Positions 13,576 through 55,809 of a stretch of DNA of 64,000 bases are shown one piece after another. Source of the stretch: an uncultured Bacteroidota bacterium (lineage in GTDB: Bacteria; Bacteroidota; Ignavibacteria; UBA10030; UBA6906); contig CAVOYH010000006.1 in NCBI GenBank assembly GCA_963700635.1, forward strand, positions 1-64,000, written 5' to 3'. The translations under genes and the position numbers were made by a program. The first letter of the stretch is position 1. Each line of letters begins with the position of its first letter. The notes below the pieces were generated by a model. That model was not told the origin of the DNA and did no database searches. It saw only the letters and a program-made list of their open reading frames with translations.

Positions 13576-13598
13576 TCCTTAGGCTGACTGCACAACAT

Positions 13599-15479: not shown

Positions 15480-15526
15480 AGGCCGATGGGTTTCAAGAGT
15501 AAGAAATATGAACTCGTGAATTCAGG

Positions 15527-16807: not shown

Positions 16808-16859
16808 AAACGTATGATCGTACTCCCGATGGTCTTGGAATGTAATACACTGTTCGCGG

Positions 16860-19107: not shown

Positions 19108-19120
19108 GGCCGATCCTTTC

Positions 19121-20723
19121 TTACTTGTACTGAATGATAATTGCCGACCGGCCATGTACCCGGCAGACGGCATCCGCATACGGACTATGGTCAACCACCG
19201 ACGTCGTGGCGCGAACGAGCACGGCCGTTACACGTCACGCGGTGCGCACGCATTCCGGCCGGGAGCAGAACGTGGAGGTCCAGTGATGCGCGTCCCTCAA
19301 CCTCAAGGGTGATTGTTCTGGTGGCGGCTGTGTGATCATACGTATAGGAAATTGAAGCACCTGATGCGCCATACCCACACAGGACATGGGCTTCCTTTTG
19401 GCCGGCGGCAATCCAGCGGGGTGCCAGTCGGACGCGCCCGAACAACCGCTGTTGGTCCACCACGCCCGCCAGACCTTCCATCAGGGCGTAGAGCATGGCC
19501 GAGGCACCCCATCCGTCAGTCGGATAGGCTTCCGGACTGGTACTTGTTTCTTTGGTTGCGTGTTGACCGTTGGGGAAATACCACAGATAGGTTTCGTTGT
19601 TTCTGGTGAGCTCTTCATACCGCAGGAGCTGGTCAATCCCGAATGACTCCTGGCCATGTTCCAGTGCTGCACGCGCCAGTTCTCCGCCCACAAGAGGCAT
19701 GATCCCGCCGTTGCAGTACGCGCCCTGCACAAGTTTTTCATCACCGTAGATGCCATCGGGGAATGGAGGATCGATGCTGAACCATGGGGCGAAGGCCCCG
19801 GTGGATGTTCCCCGCAACCGGTATTCCTCCAGGATGGACGCAGCCATCGCGTGTGTGGCCAACCCCCGGTTGATGTTCATCGGGTTGCTCAGGCTCAGCT
19901 GCGCGGCGACATCCACGCCCTCAATATGCACGGGGACAATCGGCACATGGTGGGTGTAGAACCGTCCGTTGAAGCTGACCGCATTGGCCCGCTTCCGGAA
20001 CCCCGCGGCAAACCGGCGCCAGTAGGCAGCGCGTTTGTGCTGCCGGAGATGCTCGTACATCACTCCCATCTGAATAAACGCCTGGTAATAGCCGGAACTG
20101 TCCCCGTGCATGATCCCCCAGAATGTGTCTTCCGTTATCTGGAAGTTCAGCCATTCATGTTTGCCGGCCGTATAGTCGAAGTCCCACGTGTCGATCGTGT
20201 ATGCCCGTTTTACCAGACCGCGCTTTTTGTCCCATCTCCATGGATCGGAGAGAATGTACGCCAGCGCTTTTTCGCAGTTGGGCAACAACCGTTTCATCCA
20301 GGCATCATTGCCCGTGGCCTGCCAGGCAAGAAACACGCCGTTAATAAACCGGTACTCCACATCGGCTTCAACGGGGACGCGGACATGTTTGGCCCAGTTC
20401 TCCCGTTCACAGGGAAGCTTGTCGGGCACGAGGGTCACATAGTCGAACAACCACCCCTTGAGCGTCTGGGTTTCGGCAAAATACTCCACCATACTGGTCA
20501 TGTCCTCTTCCCAGTACCGGGCGCCCCGCATCATGTCCGTATGATCGCGGATCCAGAGACTCGGCGTATCAGGGGAATGGTACCCGCGTACTCTGGAGCC
20601 CATCACATTTATTTCCGAGACATCCTGATCCATGAACGCGCGAATGCGGGGGAGAAGCGCATTAATACGCTGGTCACCGCAATCAATGTGCGTTTCCATC
20701 ACGGTTCTTCTTTTCTGTTTCAT
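19121..20723 (-). CDS. Hypothetical six-hairpin glycosidase-like protein; apparent +1 frameshift at ~19217
   Basis: WIRDH, EADVEY, WQATGND, DTWDF and GWGASAML...LAG motifs. A shifted frame continues VRATTSVVDHSPYADAVCRVHGRSAIIIQYK* and ends at 19121, directly before the next gene's SD. Confidence 0.6.
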
Positions 20724-21547
20724 TCAGCCTTCTCTTTGCTGACAACCGGGAATAACGGTCCGTGAAACTCTTCCCCCTCCTGCAGATTTCCGCGGTCGCC
20801 GATAATGTGCTCCAGAGGTGTATAATGTGTGCCTGCGGGCATAAAGATCGTGACCATCGCCCGTCTGGGCAGATCTGTCGTATTCGGGCCGGCGTAATGG
20901 AACGTTAATCCGCTGTGAAATGTGCAGCTTCCCGCCTTCATCTCCGCGACAAACGGGCGGGTTGACTCCCGATCACCCATCGGCAACAATCGCAGCAGGT
21001 CGTCATCTCCGGCGTTCCCGAGATCCACCGGGTTAAGGGGCCCCAGTTTGTGCGAGCCCGGAATAAACCACATACATCCGTTCTCCACCGTGACATCGTC
21101 CAGAGCCATCCAGCAGGAAAGGGCACCGTTTTCCTTCATGGGCCAGTAGACCTTGTCCTGATGCCATGCTGTGGCTTTGCTGTCTTTGGGATACTTGATC
21201 AGCGCATGGTCGTGCCAGAGACGTACCTCCGGCGAACGCGTGAGCTGCCGTGCGATACTCCCGATGCGCGGGCTCAGGACATAGCGTTCAATCAGCGGGT
21301 ACCGTTCCCACACGTTGACCATCTGGAGGAAGACCTTCGTGTACCCTTCGTCAGCCCTCGGCCCCCAGTTCTCCTTGAGGCGGTCCCTGTCCGCGATGGC
21401 CACTCCCAGCGCTTTCCGTACCGCGGCGACCTCCTCCGGGGTGAGCACATTATGCAGTTGCACGAAACCGTTTTCTTCATAGAACCGCACCTGCTCCTCC
21501 GTCACATCAAACCGTCCTCCGTACATAACACCCTCCGTCGTGTTCAT
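20720..21547 (-). CDS. Phytanoyl-CoA dioxygenase (PhyH)-family Fe(II)/2-oxoglutarate dioxygenase
   Basis: WHQD, WMALDDVTVENGCM..IPGSH and FHSGLTFHYAGPN..D..RR. Start at 21547 from the ATGA overlap. Confidence 0.9.
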   Translation of the reverse strand: MNTTEGVMYGGRFDVTEEQVRFYEENGFVQLHNVLTPEEVAAVRKALGVAIADRDRLKENWGPRADEGYTKVFLQMVNVWERYPLIERYVLSPRIGSIARQLTRSPEVRLWHDHALIKYPKDSKATAWHQDKVYWPMKENGALSCWMALDDVTVENGCMWFIPGSHKLGPLNPVDLGNAGDDDLLRLLPMGDRESTRPFVAEMKAGSCTFHSGLTFHYAGPNTTDLPRRAMVTIFMPAGTHYTPLEHIIGDRGNLQEGEEFHGPLFPVVSKEKAE

Positions 21548-23775
21548 CCTGGGTCTTCCACTCTTGCCTGCTGATCCTGCCGTCTCACTCTCCACATATA
21601 CGCCTCATCCACCCGCGGTTCGTCATCCCGGTGTTGTTCCATCAGGATGATCTTCCTTTCCAGCAGGTCGCCAAAATTCTCGCCGTAAATGTGGAGTGTT
21701 TCACAGAGCTCCGAGATGGAGAGAACATCACGCTGCGTCCGCTTCCAGAGTGACAGGAGTTCCCTGCTGTTCCGCACTTCATTGTCCACCATTTCCTTGC
21801 TCAACGCGCGATAGACATCCTTCTGCTGCTGTGTTTCCGCTTTGCGATATCCATGCACGGCCTCGCTCCAGGCCATCGTATTGCGCATCGTTGTCAGATA
21901 GGCGCGCGCCGCGAGCAGCCTGTCCCGCAGATCATCAAAGACGGGCAGAGCGGGATGGTCGACACGCAGGGTGCTCAACACTTCCACCGTCGCCCGCAGT
22001 GCTCCGTCGAGCGGAGGTAGTACCTGACGGTCAATCCGGTCTTTCCGGTCCGCCGCCTCGGACACGGACAGATACTGCCAGAGCATGTTCGCATTCAGGT
22101 CGATCCGTGCGGGATTGTTGAATGTTGCCAGGAGAAAACGTTCGTAGTACGCACGGTCGGCTGTTGGGAGTGCGTCAATATCCGGGACAAAAGGGCGAAC
22201 CCAGAGTCGGAACCAGGGGAAGGCGAAGGTGCTCATCGGGATGTCGGCAGGGTACGCACGCACGGCCTCGTCTGAAAACATCCAGACCGCGACAAGTGCG
22301 GCTGCATCCTGTTCCCCGACCCATCGCCGCGCAGTATCATGAAGGATGTCGGCAAGAGGGATTGTTGAGTCCATCTGCAAGACACGGAGGACTTCGCCGT
22401 TGGGATCATAGGGCGCGAGTGAGTGTGGTGTTCCACCGCAGAGAACCGCGCGGGTCCCCTGGCGCGCGGCCGTTGTCAGGCGTTCATAGACGAGTCCCGG
22501 ATACGGCAGCCCGTTGATGATGGTGCTGTTGACATCAACTTTCGCGTGCACCTGCGCTCCCGCTGCCGCAAGGGCTTCGATCTCTCCGGGGTTTCCGTGT
22601 TTCTCGAAAGAGCCAAATTCCCCGGCATCCAGGCCGTTTCCCAGTCCGGGAATAATGTACGGTCGTTCAACAAAGAACGGTGCCAGGTCACACACGACCC
22701 TGAATGATGGGTTCACGCGACGCGCTTCGTCGCGCAGGAGATGATAGTAGGACAGAACATTCCGGGCGGCTGTACGAGCGATTTCGTCGTGTGTCTTCCA
22801 TTCTCGCAGGAGATAAGGGCCGCCGTTTCTGCCGGCATACAGGGAGGACACAAATTCAAATCCGGCACCGCTGTCGTTGGTCCAGACGTGTATGAACCCC
22901 AGATCGGGGACTTCGCGGAGGATGGCACGCACAAGAGTCCGATAGTGTTCCTGCACGATGGGATGGGCCATCGCAAGCGTGTAACGGGGCCGGAATGTCT
23001 CGCGGGGATGATCCACCCGGGCACCCCGGAGGTAGCCGTTGGTGTGCCAGAACTCTTCCGGCATCGACCGGGGGGAGTTGATGTGCAGACCCGGCACAAG
23101 GCCATACCGGCGTGCAGACGCGGCATTTCGTTTCAGGGCCTGGAGGTTTGCGCTGAGATAGTCGGGAGGATAGTATCCACGGATCAGATCGGAATCCACA
23201 AACTGATCCAGATCCGGACTGTAGTCGTAGAACCAGAAGTACATGTCGCCCGGGGGGCCGGATTCATACGGACGCGCCCCCCCCAATCCGTTAATCGTCA
23301 CATGCGTGTAACCCTGCGTGGCGAGCTGTCGGATATACTCTTCGGCCGAGAAGTGCCGCGCGAGGCGGAGACTGCCGACCAGATGATCGCTGAGGTTCCG
23401 CAGCCATGGAAATGCCGGGCTCCAGGTGAGACCGTGTGTACACTGTTCCATGGTCAGGTGCGGGAGCCGCCCGAGGAGTGTGGAGACAAGCAGGTAGAGC
23501 CAGCGTGGCTGGGATGTCCGGATCGTACCGGAACCATCGTCGTCCAGCCGGAACGACAGGATCGGTTCGGCATCCCCCTCTGTTCCCCCATCGATCACCA
23601 GCGTGCCGGGAGCAGCTGCCGCCGGGGATGTACTGTCAACAATCGGGATTTCAAGACCGAGCTCCGACTTCCAGAGCTCGGCGGCTGTCTGCTCTACCGC
23701 CGCCCCCCGGGGATGAATGGCGATGATCCGGGTCTTTCGAGCGGCCTGATCTGCAAGTCGGGAGGTAAGGGTCAC
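21544..23775 (-). CDS. Hypothetical protein (743 aa), possible TIM-barrel glycoside hydrolase-like
   Basis: Long ORF translationally coupled on both sides. Short alpha/beta N-domain, a central region with GYTHVTIN, FIHVWTNDSGAG, and a helical C-terminus. No family recognised. Confidence 0.55.
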   Translation of the reverse strand: MTLTSRLADQAARKTRIIAIHPRGAAVEQTAAELWKSELGLEIPIVDSTSPAAAAPGTLVIDGGTEGDAEPILSFRLDDDGSGTIRTSQPRWLYLLVSTLLGRLPHLTMEQCTHGLTWSPAFPWLRNLSDHLVGSLRLARHFSAEEYIRQLATQGYTHVTINGLGGARPYESGPPGDMYFWFYDYSPDLDQFVDSDLIRGYYPPDYLSANLQALKRNAASARRYGLVPGLHINSPRSMPEEFWHTNGYLRGARVDHPRETFRPRYTLAMAHPIVQEHYRTLVRAILREVPDLGFIHVWTNDSGAGFEFVSSLYAGRNGGPYLLREWKTHDEIARTAARNVLSYYHLLRDEARRVNPSFRVVCDLAPFFVERPYIIPGLGNGLDAGEFGSFEKHGNPGEIEALAAAGAQVHAKVDVNSTIINGLPYPGLVYERLTTAARQGTRAVLCGGTPHSLAPYDPNGEVLRVLQMDSTIPLADILHDTARRWVGEQDAAALVAVWMFSDEAVRAYPADIPMSTFAFPWFRLWVRPFVPDIDALPTADRAYYERFLLATFNNPARIDLNANMLWQYLSVSEAADRKDRIDRQVLPPLDGALRATVEVLSTLRVDHPALPVFDDLRDRLLAARAYLTTMRNTMAWSEAVHGYRKAETQQQKDVYRALSKEMVDNEVRNSRELLSLWKRTQRDVLSISELCETLHIYGENFGDLLERKIILMEQHRDDEPRVDEAYMWRVRRQDQQARVEDPG

Positions 23776-24617
23776 AAGGATTTCTCCGGCGCTCCAATCC
23801 CCAGCACGCTGCGGCAGAATTCTATGCTCTCCCGGATTGCACTCTCCTCCCGTTCGAGGGAGGATCGTTCTCCACGGACAGGGTCAGTGGGGATCTCCAG
23901 GATCAGGCGATCTGCGACACCTTGTTCCTCCACGATGCGGAACAACTCCTCAAGCGGAAGAACACCCATACCGAGGGGAACGCCGGTGAATTTGCATCCG
24001 GTTGCCGTGTCCGTCACCGTATAGTCCTTGAACTGCACTGCCACCGCAAAGGGGATCATACGCTCAGCGGCATCGAGCACATCTTCCAGCACGCGGAGGC
24101 TGTTCCCGACATCGAGGCAGATGCCTACATGCGTGCTGCCAAGCGTTTCCACAAGGGCAACCAATTCGTCACTCCGGACGTCCCCGCGATTCTCCAGCGC
24201 CAGGCGGACATCCGTATCTTCCAGCATGCGCACACAGGAGCGGATGGAACGTTCTGCATGTTCCAGCTCCCGGGCGAGATCGGTAGTTTCGGCAAAGCGG
24301 GAAAAACCAAATGATGTTCGCAGAATCGGGCTTCCCAGCCGGCGGCAAATCTGGACCCCTTTTTTGATTGATACAGCGTCTACGCCGTTGATCCCGTACT
24401 CTACAAAGAGCCCGCGTTCCGATGATTCTTCACGGAGTACATCCAGATGCTCGTCATCCGCCTGCCGCAGATGAGCGGGATCGATATGGAATCCCTGCAG
24501 TCCGTATTCCGAAACGCGATCCAGGAAGGCAAAGAGGTCCATCGGGCGTGATGGCCGGAGGTCGCCATGGCGTCCGAACGCAAGATGATGGCTGTATGTA
24601 TTAAGTCCGATTAACAT
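23772..24617 (-). CDS. Sugar phosphate isomerase/epimerase family TIM-barrel protein
   Basis: LALENRGD, ICLDVGN, VQFKD, PLGMG and ILE pattern. Confidence 0.85.
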   Translation of the reverse strand: MLIGLNTYSHHLAFGRHGDLRPSRPMDLFAFLDRVSEYGLQGFHIDPAHLRQADDEHLDVLREESSERGLFVEYGINGVDAVSIKKGVQICRRLGSPILRTSFGFSRFAETTDLARELEHAERSIRSCVRMLEDTDVRLALENRGDVRSDELVALVETLGSTHVGICLDVGNSLRVLEDVLDAAERMIPFAVAVQFKDYTVTDTATGCKFTGVPLGMGVLPLEELFRIVEEQGVADRLILEIPTDPVRGERSSLEREESAIRESIEFCRSVLGIGAPEKSL

Positions 24618-24670
24618 GTCCCGGAAACTGCGGGTTCACGATCCGCCTGTTATGGTGATCCCCTGTGGTC

Positions 24671-25699
24671 TTACCCGTTGTGGGTGAGTTCTTTACGTAC
24701 GATTTTTGCGCCTTCGACCATTGCGCACAATTTTGCAAAAGCCCGGTCCCGGGGCATAAACTTCATACCACAATCGGGGCTGATATACATCTGTTCTGCA
24801 GGGATGTACTTCAGGGCCTCCCGGATCCGTCCGGCAACAACATCGGCTGTTTCCACGCGTTCATCTTTCACGTCGATCACTCCAACCACAACTTCTTTTT
24901 TTGTAGGATACTGTTGAAAGAGTTCGAGGCCGACACCGTCGGAAACAGCAAATTCCATGCTGATCTGGTGTGCATGGGTGTCCAGGATAGCAGGGAACAA
25001 CTCGCCATACTGCCCCGTAAAGAGCTTTTTTAACTGATAGTTGCCATAACACACATGGAGGGCGATCTTCGCCTTCACACCGTCAACCAGTCTATTAAAC
25101 GACTCCACAAGCCAGGGCATGTCCTGGGGATAACCGACCCATATCGGTTCGTCGATCTGGATGAACGTACACCCTGCCGCAACCAGTGCTTTGAGTTCCG
25201 TACGCAAAATGTCCGTCAGGTCAAAGACCAGTTCTTTGTCGGAAGGATAAAATTCATTGGTTGCCCGTTTGGCAAGCATGTGCGGTCCGGTGACACACAC
25301 CTTTGTTGCATGACGGGCATAGGTCTTCAGGAATGTGAAGTGTTCGTCCATTCCCAGGCTTCCCTTATGGCGCACTTTTTCACGCACCACGGGGTCAAGC
25401 ATCTGGACGGAAGGATCGAGGTTACCGATCGCCTTCATCTTACCCGCCATGTCAAAACCCTGGATACGCATGGAAAAGAAATTGACCATCGATTCCCTGC
25501 GGAGTTCCCCATCCGCGATGATATCCACACCGGCAGCTTCCTGATCGAGGATGGCGGAACGGACGGCATAGTCGTGCGCATCGGCCACGTCGGAGGCCTT
25601 GATGCTCCCCTGTTTCCCGAGCGACCGCACCTGGACGAGCCACGGTGGAAGCGAATAGCTGCCGATGACGGTTGTGGGAAGGAGAGGGAGAGAGGTCAT
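24671..25699 (-). CDS. Cobalamin-independent methionine synthase II family (stand-alone MetE C-terminal domain)
   Basis: TTVIGSY, DGELRRE, IQIDEP, Zn ligands in LHVCYGN, MEF and SPDCG. Confidence 0.88.
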   Translation of the reverse strand: MTSLPLLPTTVIGSYSLPPWLVQVRSLGKQGSIKASDVADAHDYAVRSAILDQEAAGVDIIADGELRRESMVNFFSMRIQGFDMAGKMKAIGNLDPSVQMLDPVVREKVRHKGSLGMDEHFTFLKTYARHATKVCVTGPHMLAKRATNEFYPSDKELVFDLTDILRTELKALVAAGCTFIQIDEPIWVGYPQDMPWLVESFNRLVDGVKAKIALHVCYGNYQLKKLFTGQYGELFPAILDTHAHQISMEFAVSDGVGLELFQQYPTKKEVVVGVIDVKDERVETADVVAGRIREALKYIPAEQMYISPDCGMKFMPRDRAFAKLCAMVEGAKIVRKELTHNG

Positions 25700-25724: not shown

Positions 25725-25766
25725 AAAAAAGAAATAGTCAGGGTGCGTAGGCACCCTGACTATTTC
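25725..25766 (-). terminator. Intrinsic terminator after the PorV-family gene
   Basis: Perfect 16-bp stem GAAATAGTCAGGGTGC-(4 nt)-GCACCCTGACTATTTC at 25731-25766, followed on the minus strand by TTTTTT. Confidence 0.88.
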
Positions 25767-25787
25767 CGACCGTCTTACATATGCAGA

Positions 25788-26831
25788 CTATTTCATTGAG
25801 AGTTGAATGGTGAACCGGTGCACCGCATCCAGAGATGTAAATACGGTGTACGCATAATCAAACCCAATGGCGTAGTCTTCGAACGGGACACGGATACCGC
25901 CACCGAAGCTACCTTTTTCAAGGCTGGTCTGGATCGGCGCACGTTGTGTCGTACCGCCGTCGATGCCGTCCCCGATCAGACCGAAGTAGCTGTAGTTGAA
26001 CTTCCACCCGGCACGCAGGAAGAACGTCTTGTCAACATTCAGTTCCATACCGGAAAAGTAGTACTGCTGACCATCCTGCGGTTTTACCAGGTCGACGGCC
26101 ATCATAATGGAAGAGCTCTCCCCGAAGGTGATCGGGGTCATGGAGGTTCCGATGCTGAACGTCAACGGAATGGGTGCTGCGTAGTCGTAGAACTTCATAT
26201 CGGCGCCCAGATTACTCAGACGTGCACCGATACTCCAGCCCATGACTCCGACATGGTACACGGAACCCAGGTCGAACGCAATCGCTGACGCATTCTGGTC
26301 ATCGATTTTCTCGTTGAGGTACTTCACGGAAACACCAAGGGAAAGGTTGTCCGTGATGTAACGGGAGAGCGTCGCCTGCACAAGGAGATCCTGATAGTCA
26401 TAGGTCTCGGCTGCGACCTGATCGATCTCCAGTGCGCCGAGTTGCGGGTCCGTGAATCCGTAATCGCGGTCGGCCGGGATACCGGAGACACCGAACGTCA
26501 TAAAGCCGACGCCGATGGTGCCGATATCTTCCAGGTTATAGCTGACCGCGGCCACTTCCTGCGCCAATCCCGCAATCCAGTTGTTGTGTGTGAATGTCGC
26601 CTGCATCGTTTCATTTTGCAGGGCAACGCCGGCGGGGTTCCAGAACATATTGCTCACGTCGCCGGTGAGTGATGTCGCCGCAGAGCCCAATGCAACCTGA
26701 CGGGCACCTACGCCGATCTTGAGAAACGCAGCGCTGTTAACGCCGCTCTTGCGTGTCTGGGCATCGGCCGTTTGCACAGCCATCCCGAGGACAAGCAACA
26801 CGATTACAACTGCAAGACACTTCGATTTCAT
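25788..26831 (-). CDS. PorV/PorQ-family outer-membrane beta-barrel (FadL-like, T9SS-associated)
   Basis: Signal peptide; AAFLKIGVGARQVALG, FWNPAG, AFDLG, SNLG and DYAY...HRF motifs typical of this family. Confidence 0.85.
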   Translation of the reverse strand: MKSKCLAVVIVLLVLGMAVQTADAQTRKSGVNSAAFLKIGVGARQVALGSAATSLTGDVSNMFWNPAGVALQNETMQATFTHNNWIAGLAQEVAAVSYNLEDIGTIGVGFMTFGVSGIPADRDYGFTDPQLGALEIDQVAAETYDYQDLLVQATLSRYITDNLSLGVSVKYLNEKIDDQNASAIAFDLGSVYHVGVMGWSIGARLSNLGADMKFYDYAAPIPLTFSIGTSMTPITFGESSSIMMAVDLVKPQDGQQYYFSGMELNVDKTFFLRAGWKFNYSYFGLIGDGIDGGTTQRAPIQTSLEKGSFGGGIRVPFEDYAIGFDYAYTVFTSLDAVHRFTIQLSMK

Positions 26832-26858
26832 AATTTTATCCTCGTGGTAGCTGATGGG

Positions 26859-29405
26859 TTATCGTAAGATCGAAAAATACCCGACCTTGCTGCCGCTCGG
26901 GGATTCGACGACATACACGTACAGGCCGCTTGCCACTTCGATGCCGTCTTTTGAGAACATATCCCAGAATATACTTCCCAAACTCGGGTCGCTGGAAGCA
27001 AACTGGATGACGTCAATAATCTGTCCGGACACATCCAGAATGGTGATCTTCGCCTGCGGCGGGAGGTTGTAGAAGAGCAGCTTATGGTCGTACACGAGAG
27101 TCCGGTTGTCATGCAGGGCAGCCCGTTTGTACGGGTTCGGCCGGACACCAACAGCACTCACATTACCTTTGGGAGCAAGCGCAGAATACACGATCTGCCT
27201 TCCACCGATGTTCTTCAGTCCGGTGGCATCCTTCGGATAGTTTGTGTTGTTGTAGCCGAACGGGTAGGTCAGATTCCAGAGACCCGATGCACCGTTGCGG
27301 TTCGTGTAGTGTGTTTCGATCCTATTTGTGGTTTCCCCACCAGGACCGGTATAGGTTCCTTCTTTGTATGCTGAAACGTAGTAGAAGTAGGTGAACCCAA
27401 GGATGACGTCTGAGTCTTCATACTTGTACGTGTAGCCCGCACTGTTCGCAGGGGTGTAGTTCCCCTTTTCTGCCTTGGGGATAACTTTGATAAGATCCCA
27501 TGTTCCCCACGTGTCGGGCTGATAGGTGCCTTTCAGCGTGGTGCTCTGCGTCTTGGCAAATGCGTCGAACTTGGGATTGACTGGTTTGTAGAGAGCCGTC
27601 GGACGCGGACCAACGGTCATCTGTTCGTGGAACAGGTCGACCACCCGCATACCTTCATCCAGCCAGTTGAGTTTCTTGAACTGAGCCGAACGCCAGACTT
27701 TGTAGCCGGCAAATTCAGCATCGGTTTCTGCCTTGGCATCCCACTCGATGCGCGAGGACTTGGTCAACGTATTGGAAACCTTGATGTCCGGCAATGAGGG
27801 AAGCACCGGAATCACGTAGTTCTGCGCATAGGCCCAGCGTGCCGCACGGACGGCTTTCTGAATGCCTTCCACACGGTAGCCGGCAACTGTCGCAAACACC
27901 AGCGTCATGGTTTCGTCTTTGGCCAGCGAGAACGGACCGATACCGCTGTACGCATCGCCGTCAAAGTTCTCTGTATGGCTTGCGCCAGCAGTCCACTTAC
28001 CGTAGCCGGTCGGGTAGTTCACGGATGCACTCGCACGGCCGTCTTCAGTCGACACCTGATCAAAGAATCCGGTCGCCTGCATCGAACCGTCCGGACGCGG
28101 GAAGGGAGCTGGTTTGGCGACAAACGTGGTCACGTCGCCTGCCGTACCGGCGCTGAACATGTTGGCATTCGGACCAAAATTAAGGAGATTAAAGTCCGAT
28201 GTGCTGTGCGATTTTCCGGCATCAATGTAGTATGCAGCAGTTGTTGCGTAGAACATCGCCTTCGGGTTGCCGGTGGTATGGCCCCAGCGGGTGGACTGGC
28301 CGGAAACGTAGTGGCCGCGTTGTGGACCCACACCGATCGGGTGGTTGCCAAAGATGGTAGTCTTTGTGGGAAGACCTGAAGTCGACAACGCACGGTTGGC
28401 CGGAAGGCCGCCCTGCTTCGCATCAAGCATGACCCATCCGGTGTAGATATCAGTGTAGTTCTTTGACGCTCCACCGTTAAAACCGTGATCCCAGTTTCCT
28501 GCAGTCGGATTTGCAGTTGTCGGGGCGGTACGGTAGAACGTAAATGCCCATGGGTCGCCATTCTCATCCACATCGTCGATCCAGCATGACTGCCGCGCGA
28601 TGATGGTTGGCACGATGTCGTTCGCGTTTCGCCCGCCACCTGCATAGCTGCCAATGGACATGTATGCTTCGCCACTCACCTGGAACGCAAGAGCTTTGAT
28701 GGCATTATCCACTTTTTCTGCAACGCCATTCATGTCCATGTCAAGGACGCCCGTATTCTTCAGTTCCACCTCAACGATGACATAGTCGTTCAGGTTGTTC
28801 CAGTTCGGACCCTGGAACGAGTGGGCGCGCAGCTTCACATCCAGACCGACGTTCGTCGGCCACGCCGCTTCGTACACGGAATGTTGCCTTCTGGTCCCGT
28901 CAACCCAGTATGGTTCCACATAGTACTTCCGGGTTGCGTCCGTTGCACCCACAACAGTACCCTTGTAGGTGAGCTGGGCGAATTCGGAGTACGCGTTGGT
29001 GGTATTCCGCGAGCCCGCGAAGTAACTCGGGTTGGTGGCGCCACCGATTTTTTCAGGGTTAAACGTCGGGCTGTTGTCATAGACGAACACCATGGCATTT
29101 TTGAACCAGTAGGGTGTCATCCAATAAGCTGCCGGCCAGTGGGTACCTGGCGTCGTCCAACCACGGTCAAAGTTACCCATCCGGAGGAATGTGCGAGTGC
29201 CAAGCGTCGCCGCCGTGCCTGCATCACTGTAGCTTGGTGTCTCGCCCTGCGGGAGGAATGACTCCCACACGTCGCCGGCCTGCAATACGCCGCCGCCCGG
29301 ATAATTGAATACCGACGCGGTCTGGCTTGTTGCCATGAAAGGCAACAGGACAAGCGCACAGACTACGAAGGTCATCAGCAGTATTCGTTGATTTGTGATA
29401 CTCAT
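26859..29405 (-). CDS. Large secreted protein with Fn3-like segment and C-terminal T9SS-sorting-like domain
   Basis: Signal peptide with no lipobox. IEWD...FAGYKVWRS...YFYYVSAY is Fn3-like. The C-terminus VRPNPY...FYNLP..AKITILDVSGQII...WDM.SKDG.EVASGLYVYVV...F.ILR resembles a T9SS CTD. Confidence 0.75.
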   Translation of the reverse strand: MSITNQRILLMTFVVCALVLLPFMATSQTASVFNYPGGGVLQAGDVWESFLPQGETPSYSDAGTAATLGTRTFLRMGNFDRGWTTPGTHWPAAYWMTPYWFKNAMVFVYDNSPTFNPEKIGGATNPSYFAGSRNTTNAYSEFAQLTYKGTVVGATDATRKYYVEPYWVDGTRRQHSVYEAAWPTNVGLDVKLRAHSFQGPNWNNLNDYVIVEVELKNTGVLDMDMNGVAEKVDNAIKALAFQVSGEAYMSIGSYAGGGRNANDIVPTIIARQSCWIDDVDENGDPWAFTFYRTAPTTANPTAGNWDHGFNGGASKNYTDIYTGWVMLDAKQGGLPANRALSTSGLPTKTTIFGNHPIGVGPQRGHYVSGQSTRWGHTTGNPKAMFYATTAAYYIDAGKSHSTSDFNLLNFGPNANMFSAGTAGDVTTFVAKPAPFPRPDGSMQATGFFDQVSTEDGRASASVNYPTGYGKWTAGASHTENFDGDAYSGIGPFSLAKDETMTLVFATVAGYRVEGIQKAVRAARWAYAQNYVIPVLPSLPDIKVSNTLTKSSRIEWDAKAETDAEFAGYKVWRSAQFKKLNWLDEGMRVVDLFHEQMTVGPRPTALYKPVNPKFDAFAKTQSTTLKGTYQPDTWGTWDLIKVIPKAEKGNYTPANSAGYTYKYEDSDVILGFTYFYYVSAYKEGTYTGPGGETTNRIETHYTNRNGASGLWNLTYPFGYNNTNYPKDATGLKNIGGRQIVYSALAPKGNVSAVGVRPNPYKRAALHDNRTLVYDHKLLFYNLPPQAKITILDVSGQIIDVIQFASSDPSLGSIFWDMFSKDGIEVASGLYVYVVESPSGSKVGYFSILR

Positions 29406-29441
29406 GATCCTCTCCTATGTATGGAGTTGTTCCATTCGTGC

Positions 29442-32400
29442 TTAAAATTCAAACCGCACGCCAAAGTAATATTCGCGCGGAATGTCGTAGAAGAGACTGT
29501 TGTCAAGGCTGACCGGACGTTTGTAGCTTCCCGTCGGATCGGCGTTCCCTTCGTCATTGCTGGTTTCCCAAATCTGTGCACCGCTGAGGGTATTGTCATA
29601 ACCGATGATGTTGGTCCAGTTGAAGGCATTCTTCACATCGGCAAAGACCGCGATGCGGATATTGTCAAACCGGAAGCCCTTTTCCAGACGGAAATCAACC
29701 ATCTGGTTCCATGGCGACTGGCCGAGCTGACGGTTCGCAACGCGCGGGTCCACAGTGTAGAGGAGCGGATAGTAGAAGCCGCTCTGGAACGTACCCACTG
29801 ACGAGAGCTGGAAGTCTTCCGGGAAACCAAGGACCAGTGTGTAACTGATCCGGTGTTCACGGTCATATCCGCCCGTCAGCGTGCTGTTGCCGCCTACAAC
29901 GTTGTTCTGGACTTTGTTGTAATAGATAAAGTCGTTGAACGGCAGCTTGTTGTTGTACTGCAGCGAGTCAAGAGTCGAGAAGGTCGTGCGCTGGGTTCCA
30001 TCATTACCGGTCCAGCCCGAGGCCTTCACATAGGTGTAGGCATAGCTTGCGCGGCCAGACACCCACAGGAAATCAAGATACTGTCTGCGGATTGCCTGTA
30101 ACGTTACCTCGATACCACGCGCATCCGCATACTGCCCGTTCATCGGGAGATGGAGGATGTTCGAGCCGTTGGTCAGCTGCAGGGTGAACGAAGGCGTCGA
30201 GTAGTTCTCGACGTCTCTCATGTACGCGGTGAAGTTCAAACCGAACTGCGCCGGCATAAACTCCCACTGCACGCCGATTTCATAGTTCGAAGACTTGATC
30301 AGGTCCTGATGTAAGGACACAAAATTCGGGAAACTTCCCGGCGCGCCGAACAGCAGGCTGTAGCTTGAGTAGAGCCGTGAGAACGGGGGAGGCGTGGCCT
30401 GACGCGAATACGAGAAGAACAATGCGGCCTGATCGCCCACCGGGTGTGACACACCGATACGCGGGGAGAAGAACCAGATTGCAGGTTCTTTTTCCGTTGC
30501 ACGGATCGGGATGTTGGAACGGAGCCCGACACCGTCAACATCGATGGTATCGGCCTTGAAGTAGTTGTAGTAGTTTGCAATGTCCGCTGCATTCGGATCC
30601 CACCTGTCAAGACGGGCGCCGATGTTCAGCACCAGACCGCCGAACTCCATCCGATCCGACGCATACACGCCGAATTCACTCGGATAGAAATTCCACTTCT
30701 CGACAAACAGGCGTGCCCGGAGGTCCGTGGCATCCGCACCAAGTGTGGAGTTCCGGCCAACGCGGGACACATCGTGCAGCTTCAACTGGAAGCCGGCTTT
30801 GAGCTGGTGATTAAAAGTCGCCTGGCTCGTAATGTCGGCACGAAGAGTATTGACGATATTCTTCAGCTGGTCATACACGAATTGCGGGCGTGTAAAACCG
30901 GTCTGGATGTTGCCGATGGAGCCGGGAGGGCCGAGGAAACTGGCGGCCGCTTCGTCACCAATACGGAAGAACTTACCCAGATCGGTGGAGGCCTTGGAGA
31001 CATACTTGGCGATGGCTTCGGGAGTCTCCAGCGTCAGGAAATCGCCGCCCTCGTCCAGACCAGCATACCCGTCACCGTTTTCGTCGGTGTAGCCATAGGT
31101 CTCTTGTTTGTAGGTCCGGCTCAGCTGCACTTCATAGAACGTTGAGGGAGAGAGCATATGAGTCAGCTTCAAACTTCCGACATAGCTCAATCCGTCATTC
31201 TTCGGCACACCTTCGAGGAAATAGCGGAACCGATCGTTGTAGTCGGTATTCTTCCATCCGAAGAGTTGTCCCTTGTCATTGATAATACCAAACGCATCAA
31301 GTTTGATGTCGTTGGAAATGTTATAGCCGGTCTTTAATGTAATATCAGCCTGGCGGCTCCGCTGGTTGGGAAGGCGGCCGTGGGTATCAAAGAACCGGCC
31401 CGAAGCGTAGAAACGCCAGTCATCGGTGATGTTTCCGCCGAGGAAAGCTTCAACATCAATCGACGGTTTGTTCTGATTGTCGTACCGGCCTGTATCATAT
31501 TTGAATTTGCTGTACCGTGTGCTGTCATTGGTGATCCCGGTCTGCACTGCGGCGGTCCGAACCGGAATGGCATACAGCGAATCGAGTCTGCGTTTTGTGG
31601 AGTACCTGTCAGAGAAGAATTTGTAATCGTCCCAGTAAACGGACGGGCCGTTGTAGCTCAGACCATTAAACTGGCTGACACGGGCGTTAAAGCCACCCTT
31701 CAGCGCTCCGCGACCTTCTTTTAATGCGTAGGTGATGGTACCGGCAGTTGCACCCGGATTCTCAGCACCGAGGGCGCCGGTGTTCAACGCCATCTGTTCC
31801 ACCGCACCGAAGTTCACGTTGGTGTTCGTGCTCAACTGGCTCTGCTGGTTGCGGGTCAAACTCGCGGCCACCAGAATACCCTGATTTGCCTGTTCGGCGG
31901 CGATGGCATAGTACTGGTCTGTCACATCAACGCCGTCAATGATGGTCTTTGTTTCGTTGATCTTGCCGCCACGGACGAATCCTTTGTAGGCGCCGGGCGT
32001 AGTGTTCAGAACTTCAATCGCGCTCACCATCGGAAGATTTGTGATTTCTTCGCTGGTGACCGTGCTCTTGGTGGAGGTACGGTTCTTGTCCACCACACGC
32101 CGTTCCGCAGAAATGAGCACCTCGCTCACTTCGACGGCTTCGGAGGGGAGAGTGAAGTTCAATTCCACGGTCTGATCGAGGTTCACGCGAACATTCTCAA
32201 CCAGGACGCGGCGGTAACCCACCGAAGATGCCTGCAAGCGGTATTCTCCGGGGGGAACGTTCAAGATTGTGTAATTGCCGTTGACGTCTGCCGTCGCGCC
32301 TAACGTTGTCCCTACAACTACAACGTTTGCACCCGGCAACGCCTGTTTTGTTGCATCGTCCCGTACTGTACCCCGCAGCTTTCCATTGGCGCCAAATGCC

Positions 32401-32462
32401 AGCGCGGCCGGAATAATCAGGAGGCATCCGAGAAAGAGAACTCGAACCCAAGCATATCTCAT
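29442..32462 (-). CDS. TonB-dependent receptor with N-terminal carboxypeptidase-regulatory-like domain
   Basis: Start at ATG 32462 (SD AAGGAG). GKLRGTVRD...LPGANV...G.YTILNVPPGEY domain; plug VRGG..E...IDG; FSPRIGVSHP; C-terminal PREYYFGVRFEF. Confidence 0.92.
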   Translation of the reverse strand: MRYAWVRVLFLGCLLIIPAALAFGANGKLRGTVRDDATKQALPGANVVVVGTTLGATADVNGNYTILNVPPGEYRLQASSVGYRRVLVENVRVNLDQTVELNFTLPSEAVEVSEVLISAERRVVDKNRTSTKSTVTSEEITNLPMVSAIEVLNTTPGAYKGFVRGGKINETKTIIDGVDVTDQYYAIAAEQANQGILVAASLTRNQQSQLSTNTNVNFGAVEQMALNTGALGAENPGATAGTITYALKEGRGALKGGFNARVSQFNGLSYNGPSVYWDDYKFFSDRYSTKRRLDSLYAIPVRTAAVQTGITNDSTRYSKFKYDTGRYDNQNKPSIDVEAFLGGNITDDWRFYASGRFFDTHGRLPNQRSRQADITLKTGYNISNDIKLDAFGIINDKGQLFGWKNTDYNDRFRYFLEGVPKNDGLSYVGSLKLTHMLSPSTFYEVQLSRTYKQETYGYTDENGDGYAGLDEGGDFLTLETPEAIAKYVSKASTDLGKFFRIGDEAAASFLGPPGSIGNIQTGFTRPQFVYDQLKNIVNTLRADITSQATFNHQLKAGFQLKLHDVSRVGRNSTLGADATDLRARLFVEKWNFYPSEFGVYASDRMEFGGLVLNIGARLDRWDPNAADIANYYNYFKADTIDVDGVGLRSNIPIRATEKEPAIWFFSPRIGVSHPVGDQAALFFSYSRQATPPPFSRLYSSYSLLFGAPGSFPNFVSLHQDLIKSSNYEIGVQWEFMPAQFGLNFTAYMRDVENYSTPSFTLQLTNGSNILHLPMNGQYADARGIEVTLQAIRRQYLDFLWVSGRASYAYTYVKASGWTGNDGTQRTTFSTLDSLQYNNKLPFNDFIYYNKVQNNVVGGNSTLTGGYDREHRISYTLVLGFPEDFQLSSVGTFQSGFYYPLLYTVDPRVANRQLGQSPWNQMVDFRLEKGFRFDNIRIAVFADVKNAFNWTNIIGYDNTLSGAQIWETSNDEGNADPTGSYKRPVSLDNSLFYDIPREYYFGVRFEF

Positions 32463-32690
32463 GGTGTTGCTCCTTGAGTGATTACAGAATGGTAACTGGT
32501 AAGCAGGTAGTATCGTCCTTGAAATCGTACCTCCTTTCGGGGCAAACATCACCCACTGAAGTAGATGTTGGGGAAGGAATAAGAACTAAGGGAAAAAAAA
32601 CAGAAACCGGGAAACGCTACAAATGAACCGCGGAGGTGTATACACGATCGGATCGTGCGGTAAACTCTTAGCTGAGGAGCGGCTCACCTG

Positions 32691-32713: not shown

Positions 32714-32742
32714 ATATTACAAAGAGTGCACTGTATTGTCAA
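32714..32742 (-). promoter_or_regulatory. Predicted sigma70 promoter of the TonB-receptor operon
   Basis: Minus strand TTGACA (32742-32737), 17-nt spacer, TAATAT (32719-32714). Confidence 0.7.
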
Positions 32743-32852: not shown

Positions 32853-35492
32853 ATGACGACCAGACGAAACTTTCTCAGACAAACAGCGGGGACAGGCACA
32901 CTGCTCGGACTGATTCCGGCTCAGCTGTCGGTCGCTCAAACACCGGAAAGTCCCAATTTGCCCGAAACGACTCACATCCACCTCCCTCCGGAGAAGAACA
33001 GGCTCGACCTCTCCCCTGCCCGATGGATCTGGTATCCATCGGAACGGACACTGCCCAATACCGTGGTGCTCTTCCGGCGCTCACTGCACATCGTTTCCAA
33101 AGTCCGAAGTGCAACAGGCTGGATCGCCGCAGACAGCCGCTACCTCCTCACCATCGACGGTACACGCGTCCAGTGGGGTCCCGCACCCGCTGACCCACGG
33201 AGAATGGAAGTTGATCCCCTTGACCTGACAGACCTTCTGAACCAGGGGAACCATACCATTGGCATCACCGCTCTCTTCTACGGCCACGGCGACGGAACAC
33301 ACCCCATCGGCAAACCGGGTGTGATCTTTACCCTGACCGTTACGTTTGTGGACGGCTCTATCCTGACGGTCTGCAGTGATGGTTCCTGGTCCTGCTACCT
33401 CTGTAAGAGCTGGCGGCCGGGTCAGTATAAACGCTGGTATCTCCGCTCGTTCCAGGAGGAGTTTGATTCGCGCCTCTATCCGTATGGATGGGACCTGCCG
33501 GAATTTCCGCCTGCGACAGACTGGCTGCCAGCGCAGCTGCTTGTGTGCCCCGCAACGGTGCCACCCAGCTGCTCAACGTATCCGGACTACATGCTGGATA
33601 CGCGGGCTGATCGGTCCGTTTCATGCCTGATGCCGCGGAGTATCCCGATGCTTACAGAGCACCCCGTCGCTGTCGAACGGCTCGTGGAAGCATACGCCGT
33701 ACGCTGGCACAGGCCGGCTGAAGAGTACTTTGATGTCCTTACACCAAATGCGTTCACTGCCTCGCCCCTCCAGATCCCTTCTACTTCACCGGGGGAATGG
33801 ACGACGGAGCTTGACGGGATATCCGCAGCGGCCCTCACATTTGAATTCCGCGATGAGTGTGTCGGGTTTCCGTTTTTTACCATTGACGCACCCCGGGACA
33901 CCATCGTTGAGCTGATGGTCCAGGAGGGACATACTCCCGGCGGGCCGCCCCTGCTGAATACACATTTCCATGCATGGTCCAGATTCATCTGTTCGGGAGG
34001 AAGGCAGACATTCCAGACGTTTGATTACGAAGCGTCAAAGTGGCTCCAGCTTCATGTCCGCGGCGCCAAAGGCCGCGTCACCATCCGCGCCGTCGGTATG
34101 CTGAGGCGGGTCTTCCCCTGGCCGCATACACCTGTAGTACGTGTCGGTGAACCAGCTCTGCAACGGCTGATGGACGCATCCATCAACACGCTCCATAATT
34201 CCGCCCAGGAAACCACAGTGGACGGCATGGGACGGGAACGCCAGCAATACAGCGGAGACGGGGCGCACCAGCTGCATGCAGTCTACCTGACGTTCGGTGA
34301 ACATCAACTCCCCGCACGGTTTTTATCCACCTTCAGCCAGGGTCTTATGCTCGAAGGATATTTCTTTGACTGCTGGCCTGCGTTTGACCGCCTGGCCCGC
34401 GTCATGGAGCGACAGGTGAACATGACCATGTGGGGCCCGTTGCTGGATCATAGTGTCGGATTCGGATTCGATTGTTATCATCACTACCTTTATACCGGCG
34501 ACCTGGAGCCCGTCCGGGAGCCGTACACCCGCTATCAGCGGTTTGTCAGGTACCTGTACGGCATCCGTGGCCGGGATGGCCTCATCCCTGTAACCGGTCT
34601 GGGAACGCCGGCAGTGTGGATCGATCACGATGCATACAGGGGCGGGCGGCAGGAACACAAACAATGCGCCTTCAACCTCTATGCGGCTGCAATGTTGTGT
34701 CATGCATTCGCACCCCTCGCCCGGGCGGCAGGGGACAGCAGCTGGGCTGAGTTCGCCGCTGTTTTCGGCTCTGAACTTCACCGTGCCGCCATTGATACGT
34801 TCTGGAGCAAAACCGATGGCCTGTATATCAACAACCTTCCCTGGCTCAAGGAGGAGGGCACGCCACGCATGTGCGATCGATCTCTTGCCACAGCCGTGCT
34901 CTACGACCAGTGCCCGGATGACATGACCGCCCCCGCGCTGCAGGCGTTGGCCGCCCCTCCCGCTCATCTGGGAATCTCCTATCCGGCGAACGCGTGCTGG
35001 CGATACTGGGCTCTCGCCAGAGGTGGCCGGACGGATGTTGTCCTCCGCGAGTTGCGGGAACGATGGGCCCCGATGGACACCGTGGTGCTGAACAACACAA
35101 TCGGTGAGAATTGGAACGCGGCGCCTGATAGTGGTGATCTGTGGAGCCACTGTGCCGTTGTGCCGCTCTACCTGTTGACCATGGGAATTGCCGGGATTCA
35201 ACCTACCGCACCCGGCTTCGCGCGCTGCCGCCTCAGGCCTCAACCGGCTGACCTCCATCACTTCTCGGTTGTCGTCCCCACGGTCCGCGGATCGTTATCC
35301 ATGGAAGCCACCGGGCAGATGGGCGACCGCACCGTGCACGTTCAGGTGCCCGAGACGTGTGATGCCGAGATTGTCTTGGATGGACGTGAGAAGGTTCCTC
35401 TGAAACTGCTCCGTCAATCCGGTGACGGGCGGACCGCAGTGTTCAAACTCCCGTCGACAACAGACCATCATCTTCACCTGAAACACACCTGA
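32853..35492 (+). CDS. Tat-exported alpha-L-rhamnosidase-like protein (GH78 family)
   Basis: TRRNFLR Tat signal; ARWIWYP...FRR...ADSRY.L.IDG N-domain; VDGMGRERQQYSGD catalytic region; TIGENW, SHC and GIQPTAPGF. Confidence 0.85.
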   Translation: MTTRRNFLRQTAGTGTLLGLIPAQLSVAQTPESPNLPETTHIHLPPEKNRLDLSPARWIWYPSERTLPNTVVLFRRSLHIVSKVRSATGWIAADSRYLLTIDGTRVQWGPAPADPRRMEVDPLDLTDLLNQGNHTIGITALFYGHGDGTHPIGKPGVIFTLTVTFVDGSILTVCSDGSWSCYLCKSWRPGQYKRWYLRSFQEEFDSRLYPYGWDLPEFPPATDWLPAQLLVCPATVPPSCSTYPDYMLDTRADRSVSCLMPRSIPMLTEHPVAVERLVEAYAVRWHRPAEEYFDVLTPNAFTASPLQIPSTSPGEWTTELDGISAAALTFEFRDECVGFPFFTIDAPRDTIVELMVQEGHTPGGPPLLNTHFHAWSRFICSGGRQTFQTFDYEASKWLQLHVRGAKGRVTIRAVGMLRRVFPWPHTPVVRVGEPALQRLMDASINTLHNSAQETTVDGMGRERQQYSGDGAHQLHAVYLTFGEHQLPARFLSTFSQGLMLEGYFFDCWPAFDRLARVMERQVNMTMWGPLLDHSVGFGFDCYHHYLYTGDLEPVREPYTRYQRFVRYLYGIRGRDGLIPVTGLGTPAVWIDHDAYRGGRQEHKQCAFNLYAAAMLCHAFAPLARAAGDSSWAEFAAVFGSELHRAAIDTFWSKTDGLYINNLPWLKEEGTPRMCDRSLATAVLYDQCPDDMTAPALQALAAPPAHLGISYPANACWRYWALARGGRTDVVLRELRERWAPMDTVVLNNTIGENWNAAPDSGDLWSHCAVVPLYLLTMGIAGIQPTAPGFARCRLRPQPADLHHFSVVVPTVRGSLSMEATGQMGDRTVHVQVPETCDAEIVLDGREKVPLKLLRQSGDGRTAVFKLPSTTDHHLHLKHT

Positions 35493-49697: not shown

Positions 49698-49734
49698 CCG
49701 TTTCCGTACACACGACAACATCTGGAATACTCTC

Positions 49735-52497: not shown

Positions 52498-52512
52498 ACT
52501 GAGAACGATGAG

Positions 52513-54972: not shown

Positions 54973-55062
54973 ATACCATTCCCCACGGGAGTCCATATCA
55001 TGAGTACACCTGTCAAAGGCGGAATCATCCTCGAAATATTGTTCAGCAGGAAGGACTGACCG

Positions 55063-55809
55063 GTGGGTTCCCTGGTGGTCACGGTGTATTTCTGGAGCAC
55101 CATGCTGATTACGTCTCTGTTGCTCCTGCCGGTCGCCCTGATCATCAGGATCGCCAGCGCTCCGTTCGACCGCCGGCTGACGCTGCTGCACCGTTTTACT
55201 TCATTCTGGGGTTCCCTGTATACATGGGTGAACCCTTTCTGGAGTGTGTCGATAGAAGGAACGGAGCATCTGTCTCACGAGAAGCCCCGGGTCATGGTCG
55301 CGAACCATCAGTCCTTTGCAGACATCCTTCTGCTCTTCCGTCTCCGGGCACACTACAAATGGGTTTCCAAGGCCGAGAACTTCAGAGTGCCCCTCATCGG
55401 CTGGAACATGTCGCTGAACCGCTACATCAAGATCGAGCGGGGATCGGTCCGCGGCAACCGGAAAATGATGCGCGATTGTGAGAAGGCACTGCATGAGGGA
55501 AATTCGGTGATGATCTTTCCGGAAGGCACCCGGTCGGAGGATGGCCGGATGCGACCGTTTAAGGAGGGAGCCTTCGAACTGGCAATCCGCACGCAATCAG
55601 CCATCCTTCCCATTCTGATAGCCGGAACGGCGCAGGCGCTCCCCAAGCGGGGTATGCTCCTCCGGGGAAAGTGCGAGATGCGGCTCCACATCCTCCCCGA
55701 GATCCTCCCTGAGACCTATCTGGGAAAAAACGCCCGCCAGCTCAGCCAGGAGGTGAACGCAATGATGGCCATGACGCAAGCGACCGGGGTGATCTCAGCC
55801 CGGGGGTAA
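55063..55809 (+). CDS. plsC: 1-acyl-sn-glycerol-3-phosphate acyltransferase (PlsC family)
   Basis: NHQS..D, FPEGTRS and FK.GAF motifs. Confidence 0.88.
   Translation: MGSLVVTVYFWSTMLITSLLLLPVALIIRIASAPFDRRLTLLHRFTSFWGSLYTWVNPFWSVSIEGTEHLSHEKPRVMVANHQSFADILLLFRLRAHYKWVSKAENFRVPLIGWNMSLNRYIKIERGSVRGNRKMMRDCEKALHEGNSVMIFPEGTRSEDGRMRPFKEGAFELAIRTQSAILPILIAGTAQALPKRGMLLRGKCEMRLHILPEILPETYLGKNARQLSQEVNAMMAMTQATGVISARG

Follow-up and report, generated by a model that had tools for sequence, protein, structure and literature searches.

What does the partner of a TonB-dependent transporter do when it is plainly not SusD, and how might it be kept at the cell surface? This question is raised by a unit of three genes at positions 25788-32462, on the minus strand, of a 64,000-nucleotide (nt) stretch of DNA, called the window below, from an uncultured bacterium of the Ignavibacteria (Bacteroidota; UBA10030; UBA6906; assembly GCA_963700635.1, contig CAVOYH010000006.1, positions 1 to 64,000 of the forward strand). 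The genes encode a divergent TonB-dependent transporter (gene 1), an 848-amino-acid (aa) secreted protein, here called X (gene 2), and an outer membrane barrel of the PorV/PorQ family (gene 3). An earlier note made from the letters of the window (the sequence-only reading) had seen in them an uptake module in which a protein exported by a type IX secretion system (T9SS) is held beside its transporter by a dedicated barrel and replaces SusD. The triad proved to be a real, widespread module, and it probably performs the nutrient-capture job of the SusC/SusD pair of Bacteroides.

All coordinates are window positions unless a contig is named. Three open reading frames (ORFs) lie co-oriented on the minus strand, at 29442-32552, 26859-29405, and 25788-26831, with intergenic gaps of 36 and 27 bp. 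The first reads as 1036 aa from its farthest GTG; because a typical, clean signal peptide begins at the ATG at 32462, this ATG is the likely start of gene 1. The sequence-only reading had given the three genes their own promoter and terminator. The ORFs were confirmed, and the flanking signals were present as consensus matches only: a promoter-like TTGACA-17-TAATAT 5' of the transporter gene (32714-32742, minus strand; 10 of 12 consensus matches) and a terminator-like hairpin (25730-25767, minus strand; 17-bp stem with 8 GC pairs, T-run), which is long and well placed between the gene 3 stop and the ATG of the next gene. Neither kind of site was enriched in the scanned region, where 3 promoter-like sites were seen versus 5.1 expected from shuffled sequence and 7 terminator-like sites versus 8.2. 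In a groundwater metatranscriptome, present as contigs only, so that uncovered gene parts carry no meaning, eight 151-nt contigs covered parts of all three genes, each differing at 1 to 10 of its 151 letters; they derive from a strain or a near relative, DNA may be present in the library, and they show neither transcription nor co-transcription.

Gene 1 (29442-32462, minus strand; 1006 aa) is a TonB-dependent transporter by its modeled fold, which in this class is a 22-stranded barrel with an N-terminal plug, and its sequence is very divergent. A Pfam scan found CarboxypepD_reg (E = 1e-20), with neither Plug nor TonB_dep_Rec matched at E<=0.1, and the SusC/RagA model TIGR04056 gave 57.4 bits (cut-off, 368), the match being limited to profile positions 2-120 of 981. 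In a sequence search of the PDB, the N-terminal domain was matched and nothing further; a 38-sequence profile of the family gave weak plug matches in the same database (PirA, E = 9e-4; PqqU and YncD, about 2e-3). The AlphaFold model, built from an alignment of 38 orthologues, had a pLDDT of 81.7 and a pTM of 0.81. Foldseek placed FusA first (E = 3e-29), followed by YddB, ButC, FpvA, and SusC, and all 47 listed matches were TonB-dependent transporters; VIA gave Z scores of about 31 to Cir, BtuB, FhuA, and others, with 530 to 650 residues aligned. From the N to the C terminus, the predicted parts are a signal peptide, the CarboxypepD_reg domain, the segment EVLISAE, a plug, and a barrel. EVLISAE, for which the alignment gives the family consensus EVVVxAE, stands between the N-terminal domain and the plug and is a putative TonB box. 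Gene 1 has a SusC-like N-terminal layout and lies outside the SusC/RagA family as NCBI defines that family.

Gene 2 (26859-29405, minus strand) had been described as encoding a secreted protein that is not SusD and that ends in a domain resembling the C-terminal domain (CTD) of T9SS cargo, and both statements held. X is not SusD, because its signal peptide, read directly, carries no lipobox and its model shows nothing helical or TPR-like. Profile scans of X found no SusD match, no Pfam family, and no characterised enzyme family; PF18962, the Pfam type-A CTD, was not matched by X itself, and the matches that appeared were below threshold: FlgD_ig (16.4 bits; cut-off, 27), the type-A CTD model TIGR04183 (15.4 bits; cut-off, 23), and the PorZ and PorU models, in their C-terminal parts. 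A sequence search of the PDB gave nothing meaningful (best E value, 0.44). The 113 homologues of X in a large protein collection carry no informative name, those with a name being called hypothetical; their precomputed annotation includes PF18962 in 12 and PF13860 in 2. A language-model look-up of the N-terminal domain returned unnamed clusters only, from Zixibacteria, Fidelibacterota, and Gemmatimonadota.

The model of X, built from a 48-sequence alignment (pLDDT, 88.6; pTM, 0.89), is all-beta. After a signal helix it shows a beta supersandwich of the galactose-mutarotase type (residues ~30-535; 27801-29318, minus strand), a conserved junction helix with a proline-rich linker and an FN3-like domain (residues ~511-735; 27201-27788, minus strand), for which Foldseek returned FN3 matches, and a C-terminal beta-sandwich (residues ~745-848; 26862-27173, minus strand). 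In a wide VIA search, the supersandwich matched 9ju0 (Z = 16.1; 261 residues aligned; root mean square deviation [rmsd], 3.7), 8rf9 (Z = 16.0), 7fe3 (Z = 15.8), and 3wiq (Z = 15.6); it resembles the non-catalytic N-terminal domains of enzymes of the glycoside hydrolase (GH) types GH15, GH65, GH94, and GH116 and also aldose epimerases. The model holds no (alpha/alpha)6 catalytic domain. The C-terminal beta-sandwich is a T9SS CTD by its modeled fold, type-A-like and closest to PorZ (5m11; Z = 10.9; 87 residues aligned; rmsd, 2.9; 28% identity) and PorU (6za2; Z = 10.8; 88 residues aligned; rmsd, 2.4) in VIA, and the PorZ CTD ranked 8th with Foldseek. The domain carries an extension of the form PNPYK...NLP.

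The junction was also found in other X proteins of the same genome. At residues ~481-575 (about 27681-27965), the elements GPFxL, a helix, a PPPxP linker, and an FN3 start of the form WD...F.GYKIYRS are common to X and to the X proteins of L100 and L101, which have unrelated bodies. Its conservation, set against the variation of the N-terminal body, makes the junction a candidate element for docking to the transporter or the barrel.

Gene 3 (25788-26831, minus strand; 347 aa) was described by the sequence-only reading as a PorV-family barrel, and it passed the PorV/PorQ subfamily model NF033709 with 165.4 bits (cut-off, 90) over residues 33-346. It failed both equivalog models, with 65.7 bits versus 250 for PorV (NF033710) and 82.9 bits versus 220 for PorQ (NF033711). 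Its Pfam matches at E<=0.1 were UPF0164 (23.6 bits) and PorV, and PorP_SprF was absent from that scan. The sole canonical PorV of the genome is encoded beside PorU (C2:143675-144793; 256.5 bits versus 250) and the sole canonical PorQ elsewhere again (C1:348920-350059; 231.3 bits versus 220). By these profile scores, gene 3 is a PorV/PorQ-family paralogue that is distinct from the housekeeping PorV and PorQ.

The gene 3 barrel and residues 740-848 of X, both given as alignments, were modeled as a complex in three runs. An interface between CTD and barrel was predicted, with an ipSAE of 0.88 versus 0.00 for the best of 3 controls; the runs shared at least 92% of contacts, and the partner pLDDT was at least 79. 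Among solved complexes, 116 of 157 attained the ipSAE mark, and among mismatched pairs 2 of 215 did so. On the barrel side, the predicted interface takes in a conserved N-terminal segment, and on the X side the conserved PNPYK stretch that precedes the core of the CTD. The model supports, and does not show, binding of the X CTD to the gene 3 barrel.

PorV and PorQ are FadL homologues according to passages of one paper (PMC12578637), and UPF0164, which gene 3 matches, is an uncharacterised barrel family; gene 3 might accordingly encode a FadL-type channel that works on its own, conducts some small hydrophobic or amphipathic substrate, and is tied to its neighbors by operon history only. This is very improbable, since the barrel invariably adjoins a CTD-bearing gene, has the predicted CTD interface just described, and diverges together with the CTD (r = 0.81; see below).

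The order of the three genes was conserved far outside the window. A scan for relatives of X, with one genome per species, yielded 78 loci, whose neighbors were scored by tblastn. A gene 1 homologue stood directly upstream of the X homologue in 62 of the 63 loci with room upstream, and a gene 3 homologue stood downstream in 74 of 75 with room downstream; where there was room on both sides, 60 of 61 loci kept both neighbors. The triplet foreseen by the sequence-only reading is thus conserved, and its order is more than chance. The loci span metagenome-assembled genomes of Ignavibacteriota and Bacteroidota, Latescibacterota, Gemmatimonadota, KSB1, Kryptoniota, and Zhuqueibacter-type bacteria, and identity to X falls as low as 34% among the relatives. 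In the sole exception, L068, an additional X gene lies behind a complete unit: the sequence (L068:1-9472) contains the end of one unit, with the tail of an X gene and a barrel gene, then MetE-like, 743-aa-like, and PhyH-like genes, and then the second X copy, which has no transporter gene before it and after which no barrel gene was found.

The unit was also multiplied within the window's own genome (4.2 Mb in 6 contigs; 97% complete). Eighteen PorV_fam matches scored over the cut-off, and gene maps around them revealed about 13 triads, each consisting of genes for a CarboxypepD_reg transporter, a protein of 590 to 1283 aa, and a PorV-family barrel; in 10 of these all three genes were single ORFs, and in 3 or 4 genes were split over frames. 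Within the triads the genes were separated by short gaps or, often, overlapped by their starts and stops. The triad-linked barrels all passed the subfamily model only. None of 12 middle proteins reached any Pfam cut-off. Profile comparison showed that the middle proteins have the CTD and the junction/FN3 segment in common with X and that their N-terminal bodies differ; when the X family was compared with other own-genome X proteins by hhalign, the junction was aligned with probabilities of 97.4% and 99.0%. The genome encodes about 140 CTD-bearing proteins, most of them without a private barrel.

One of the triads (C3:1795705-1811414) belongs to a duplicate of the whole nine-gene operon of the window and its divergent neighbor, locus L099 (C3:1792680-1811414), with genes for a transporter, X, a barrel, a MetE-like protein, a TIM barrel, 743/748-aa, PhyH, 510/533-aa, and 688/749-aa proteins, and a divergent 879/898-aa protein; the X copy is 55% identical and split over two overlapping frames (741 and 123 aa) by a frameshift or an assembly error. 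Other loci of this genome departed from the common pattern. At C3:487824-495159 and C3:1299123-1302557, CarboxypepD_reg transporter genes are directly followed by genes for CTD proteins (599 and 796 aa at the former, 391 aa at the latter) and no PorV-family barrel gene; these are a two-gene version of the unit. In L110 (C3:400753-408579) the order varies: a PorV-family barrel gene directly follows the transporter gene, and after it come genes for an NHL-repeat protein of 365 aa and a patatin-POTRA-Omp85 protein of 929 aa. L111 (C5:195123-198587) contains a gene for a 518-aa BNR/sortilin-like CTD protein, then two tandem PorV-family barrel genes (one with 62.6 bits), and no adjoining transporter gene.

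The relation of the triad to SusD was examined through counts of PorV_fam and SusD matches in 121 sampled genomes of the phylum. Neither SusD_RagB nor SusD-like_3 had a match anywhere in the window's own genome. The 29 genomes of the window's class had from 3 to at least 16 PorV_fam matches each (median, 15), and SusD_RagB was found in 7 of these 29, with 1 or 2 matches each. Two SusD-rich families, comprising 16 genomes with up to at least 17 SusD matches, had 1 to 5 PorV_fam matches. One family of 25 genomes had neither of the two. In the main, the distribution is reciprocal and not exclusive. Together with the gene order, this pattern makes it plausible that the triad stands in for SusD.

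We favor, as somewhat better than an even chance, the reading that the three genes form one outer membrane nutrient-uptake unit, in which X is held by its private barrel and feeds the transporter. X would be exported via Sec and then carried across the outer membrane by the type IX pathway with the use of its CTD. The private PorV/PorQ-type barrel would bind that CTD and keep X at the surface of the cell with no lipid anchor involved, the CTD presumably staying uncleaved. The supersandwich of X would most likely bind carbohydrate, and X, lying beside the transporter, would pass the substrate on for import by gene 1. X would then do the job of SusD and of the surface glycan-binding lipoproteins in Bacteroidia. 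A SusD-like lid role for X is the least certain of these steps and is doubtful.

Retention of X has precedents. Passages of a review (PMC10202324) state that the CTD of PorU stays on PorV and that of PorZ on PorQ, and they put forward the hypothesis that cognate PorV-like barrels shield CTDs from cleavage. The same passages report cognate barrel genes beside cargo genes for type-B CTDs, which would also suit a different arrangement, namely, that X is ordinary type IX cargo, an enzyme or a binder, whose CTD is cleaved so that X is released or attached to lipopolysaccharide, with the barrel, like PorP/SprF-like proteins for type-B CTD cargo of Flavobacterium, as a cargo-specific export adaptor instead of a permanent anchor and with the transporter taking up what X liberates. 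PorU, PorZ, and PorQ, a complete attachment set, are present in the genome, most of its CTD proteins do without a private barrel, and the complex model is blind to the difference between transient and permanent binding of CTD and barrel. We nevertheless regard release or attachment as unlikely. The X CTD is nearest to those of PorZ and PorU, both of which keep their CTDs, although the match list may just mirror which CTDs are solved; the X CTDs cluster apart and carry a conserved extension inside the predicted interface; and a pure export adaptor would not need the transporter linkage seen in nearly all of the loci.

The genes around the triad bear on its substrate. The sequence-only reading had placed the unit at the head of a cluster resembling a polysaccharide utilization locus (PUL), and this description has to be qualified: the conserved downstream set comprises genes for a MetE-like protein, a sugar-isomerase-type TIM barrel, PhyH, and three proteins without a Pfam family, and a GH78-like (alpha-L-rhamnosidase-like) gene (32853-35492, plus strand) is divergent. 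The downstream genes that are co-oriented with the triad and accompany it in relatives (15527-25699, minus strand) encode the MetE-like protein, the TIM barrel (of the xylose isomerase type), a 743-aa protein, a PhyH dioxygenase, a 510-aa protein, a 688-aa protein, and a class-V aminotransferase. The 743-aa protein fell with GH20b/GH67N-like clusters by language-model features, which is a lead only, and the 688-aa protein is weakly GH15-like. Of the 78 loci, many of them incomplete, 34 have the MetE-like gene after the triad, 25 the 743-aa gene, 15 the 510-aa gene, and 13 the PhyH gene; the GH78-like gene was found in 6. GH51 and GH47 genes lie near the window locus, and other triads of the genome adjoin GH38, GH43-like, BNR, and PIG-L genes. 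This mixture of GH78-, GH15-, and possibly GH20/67-like genes with the MetE-like, PhyH, and aminotransferase set names no substrate.

The same neighborhood would suit a unit that is not a glycan system at all, in which X is an enzyme or binder for a different nutrient, for instance a peptide, a cofactor, or a modified amino compound, and the supersandwich is catalytic or just structural. The MetE-like, PhyH dioxygenase, class-V and class-III aminotransferase, amidohydrolase, and sodium:solute symporter genes that accompany the triad point this way, as does a class-V aminotransferase gene directly 3' of the triad in distant phyla (L063, L065, L071, and L075), and mutarotase and lyase families have the supersandwich fold in common. 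The GH78-like, weakly GH15-like, and GH20b/GH67N-like genes in the locus, the last as a lead only, the nearby GH51 and GH47 genes, and the glycan-type neighbors (GH38, GH43-like, BNR, and PIG-L) of the other triads argue the other way, and a non-glycan role is held to be quite unlikely.

Against a barrel-held, sugar-binding X that feeds its transporter stand a number of points, which we gather here. For X itself, the CTD scores under the cut-offs of the curated CTD models. The supersandwich fold is no proof of sugar binding, and the periplasmic domain of YidC matches the X supersandwich as well (VIA Z, 12.1). The MetE-like, PhyH, and aminotransferase neighbors fall outside the classic enzymes of glycan use. 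That X touches the transporter is a step that we infer. The complex pass, for its part, may stem from solved structures that the predictor has memorised, as passages of one report (PMC10994853) describe solved PorV loops that wrap a CTD within SprA; close cousins of true partners pass the complex test too. A pass indicates likeness and not specificity.

Two further lines of evidence from the window's genome are to be read with the same reserve. Over 10 units, the transporters, X bodies, CTDs, and barrels diverged together, their distances being correlated (Mantel r, 0.79 to 0.84, and 0.81 for barrel versus CTD; p<=4e-4), and the 14 of about 140 CTD genes that are followed by a PorV-family gene clustered on the CTD tree (4 label changes, against 13.5 for shuffled labels and none of 500 shuffles reaching so low a count); near-copies inflate both measures, and the tree, based on a small number of columns, has poor resolution. 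Both results suit a matched CTD-barrel pair, and both would also arise, with no binding at all, from linkage and duplication of the genes as a unit. The families f16 and f26 carry many PorV_fam genes plus several SusD genes, and because they have both, PorV_fam expansion and SusD are not mutually exclusive.

The export step carries a difficulty of its own. The sequence-only reading had left it to be seen whether core T9SS genes lie elsewhere in the genome; SprA, PorU, and PorZ were found above cut-offs, in addition to PorV and PorQ, and the models for GldK, GldL, and GldM, the usual type IX motor, found nothing there. A GldM_1st match appeared in 14 of the 61 phylum genomes searched; these 14 belong without exception to the SusD-rich families, and the 15 genomes of the window's class gave none. 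In addition, phmmer searches of the genome's ORFs with GldL, GldM, and GldN from two GldM_1st-bearing genomes gave nothing at E<=1. Two explanations offer themselves: a motor that has diverged beyond detection, or a different source of power for CTD export in this genome.

Some other features of the window were recorded. The class-V aminotransferase gene at the operon end (15527-16807) encodes a protein that aligned over its full length with PvdN, a periplasmic pyoverdine-tailoring enzyme (E = 2e-33, well below the cut-off). At 12001-16000, where two sodium:solute symporter genes lie side by side (11644-15479, minus strand), the AT skew jumped to about +0.2, against values within +/-0.1 in the rest of the window. 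A second triad had been suspected at 49480-55809 from similar gene sizes and was rejected, the genes there encoding S9 and M1 peptidases and an acyltransferase.

The triad shares parts of its design with several known systems. As in SusC/SusD (RagA/RagB), a large transporter with a CarboxypepD_reg-type N-terminal domain ahead of the TonB box (a putative one in gene 1) is followed by the gene for a secreted partner, and the pair has been multiplied into many paralogous units per genome, placed among substrate-specific enzymes, with the roughly reciprocal distribution given above. Unlike SusD, X is all-beta and has no TPR, lipobox, or SusD Pfam match, and the transporter falls far short of the SusC/RagA model (57 bits versus 368); the display of X would use a type IX CTD and a third gene instead of a lipid anchor. 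PorZ-PorQ and PorU-PorV resemble what is proposed for X and its barrel in that a CTD surface protein is held non-covalently by a PorV/PorQ barrel of the same NCBIfam subfamily, and their CTDs are the structurally nearest to that of X. They differ as single-copy housekeeping parts of the secretion system, both separately present in this genome, whereas the triad pairs occur in about 13 copies, are always joined to a transporter gene, and carry a variable ligand-type domain.

Type-B CTD cargo with a PorP/SprF-like barrel, as in SprB/SprF of Flavobacterium, likewise has a cargo gene followed by its own barrel gene, and passages of the review propose cognate CTD handling for it (PMC10202324). The triad differs in that gene 3 belongs to the PorV/PorQ family, the X CTD is type-A-like, a link to gliding adhesins is lacking, and the unit includes a transporter gene. 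BtuB-BtuG is a pair of a TonB-dependent transporter and a surface lipoprotein. In it and in BamG-BamH, as proposed for the triad, a surface-exposed binding protein works with a TonB-dependent transporter; both belong to other protein families and have lipoproteins in place of CTD proteins. BamG is described, in passages of one paper, as a FadL-type barrel that holds its extracellular partner by loops in the Bacteroidota beta-barrel assembly machinery (PMC12578637).

In the literature covered, which took in little of the subscription journals, no description was found of a gene order of transporter, CTD protein, and PorV-like barrel. The available passages of the Melioribacter roseus genome paper report one SusCDE operon and Por-tailed enzymes, and the triad is not among their content. 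The parts are all of known kinds (TonB-dependent transporter, type IX CTD, and PorV/PorQ barrel), and the principles of a barrel-held CTD protein and of a transporter with a surface partner are known too; what is new is that they are combined and that the combination has been multiplied into a family of paralogous units. More tentatively, and with doubt predominating, the triad may be a general and possibly ancestral solution of the Fibrobacteres-Chlorobi-Bacteroidetes (FCB) group, outside the Bacteroidia, for providing transporters with partners: each CTD would be read by its own barrel, giving a dozen or more orthogonal pairs per cell, SusD would be a later replacement, and CTD export may proceed with no GldKLM motor that can be recognised.

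Soils, sediments, and groundwater harbor the Ignavibacteriota, Latescibacterota, Gemmatimonadota, KSB1, and related groups as abundant degraders of polymers, and PUL predictors keyed on SusC/SusD pairs do not see the uptake loci of these bacteria. If the triad works as a unit, it would serve as a marker for nutrient-utilization loci in these groups. A large set of unnamed proteins of 600 to 1300 aa would then gain a role, and type IX secretion would reach beyond export to the assembly of transport complexes. The many paralogous CTD-barrel pairs per genome would form a natural system for the matching of CTDs to barrels.

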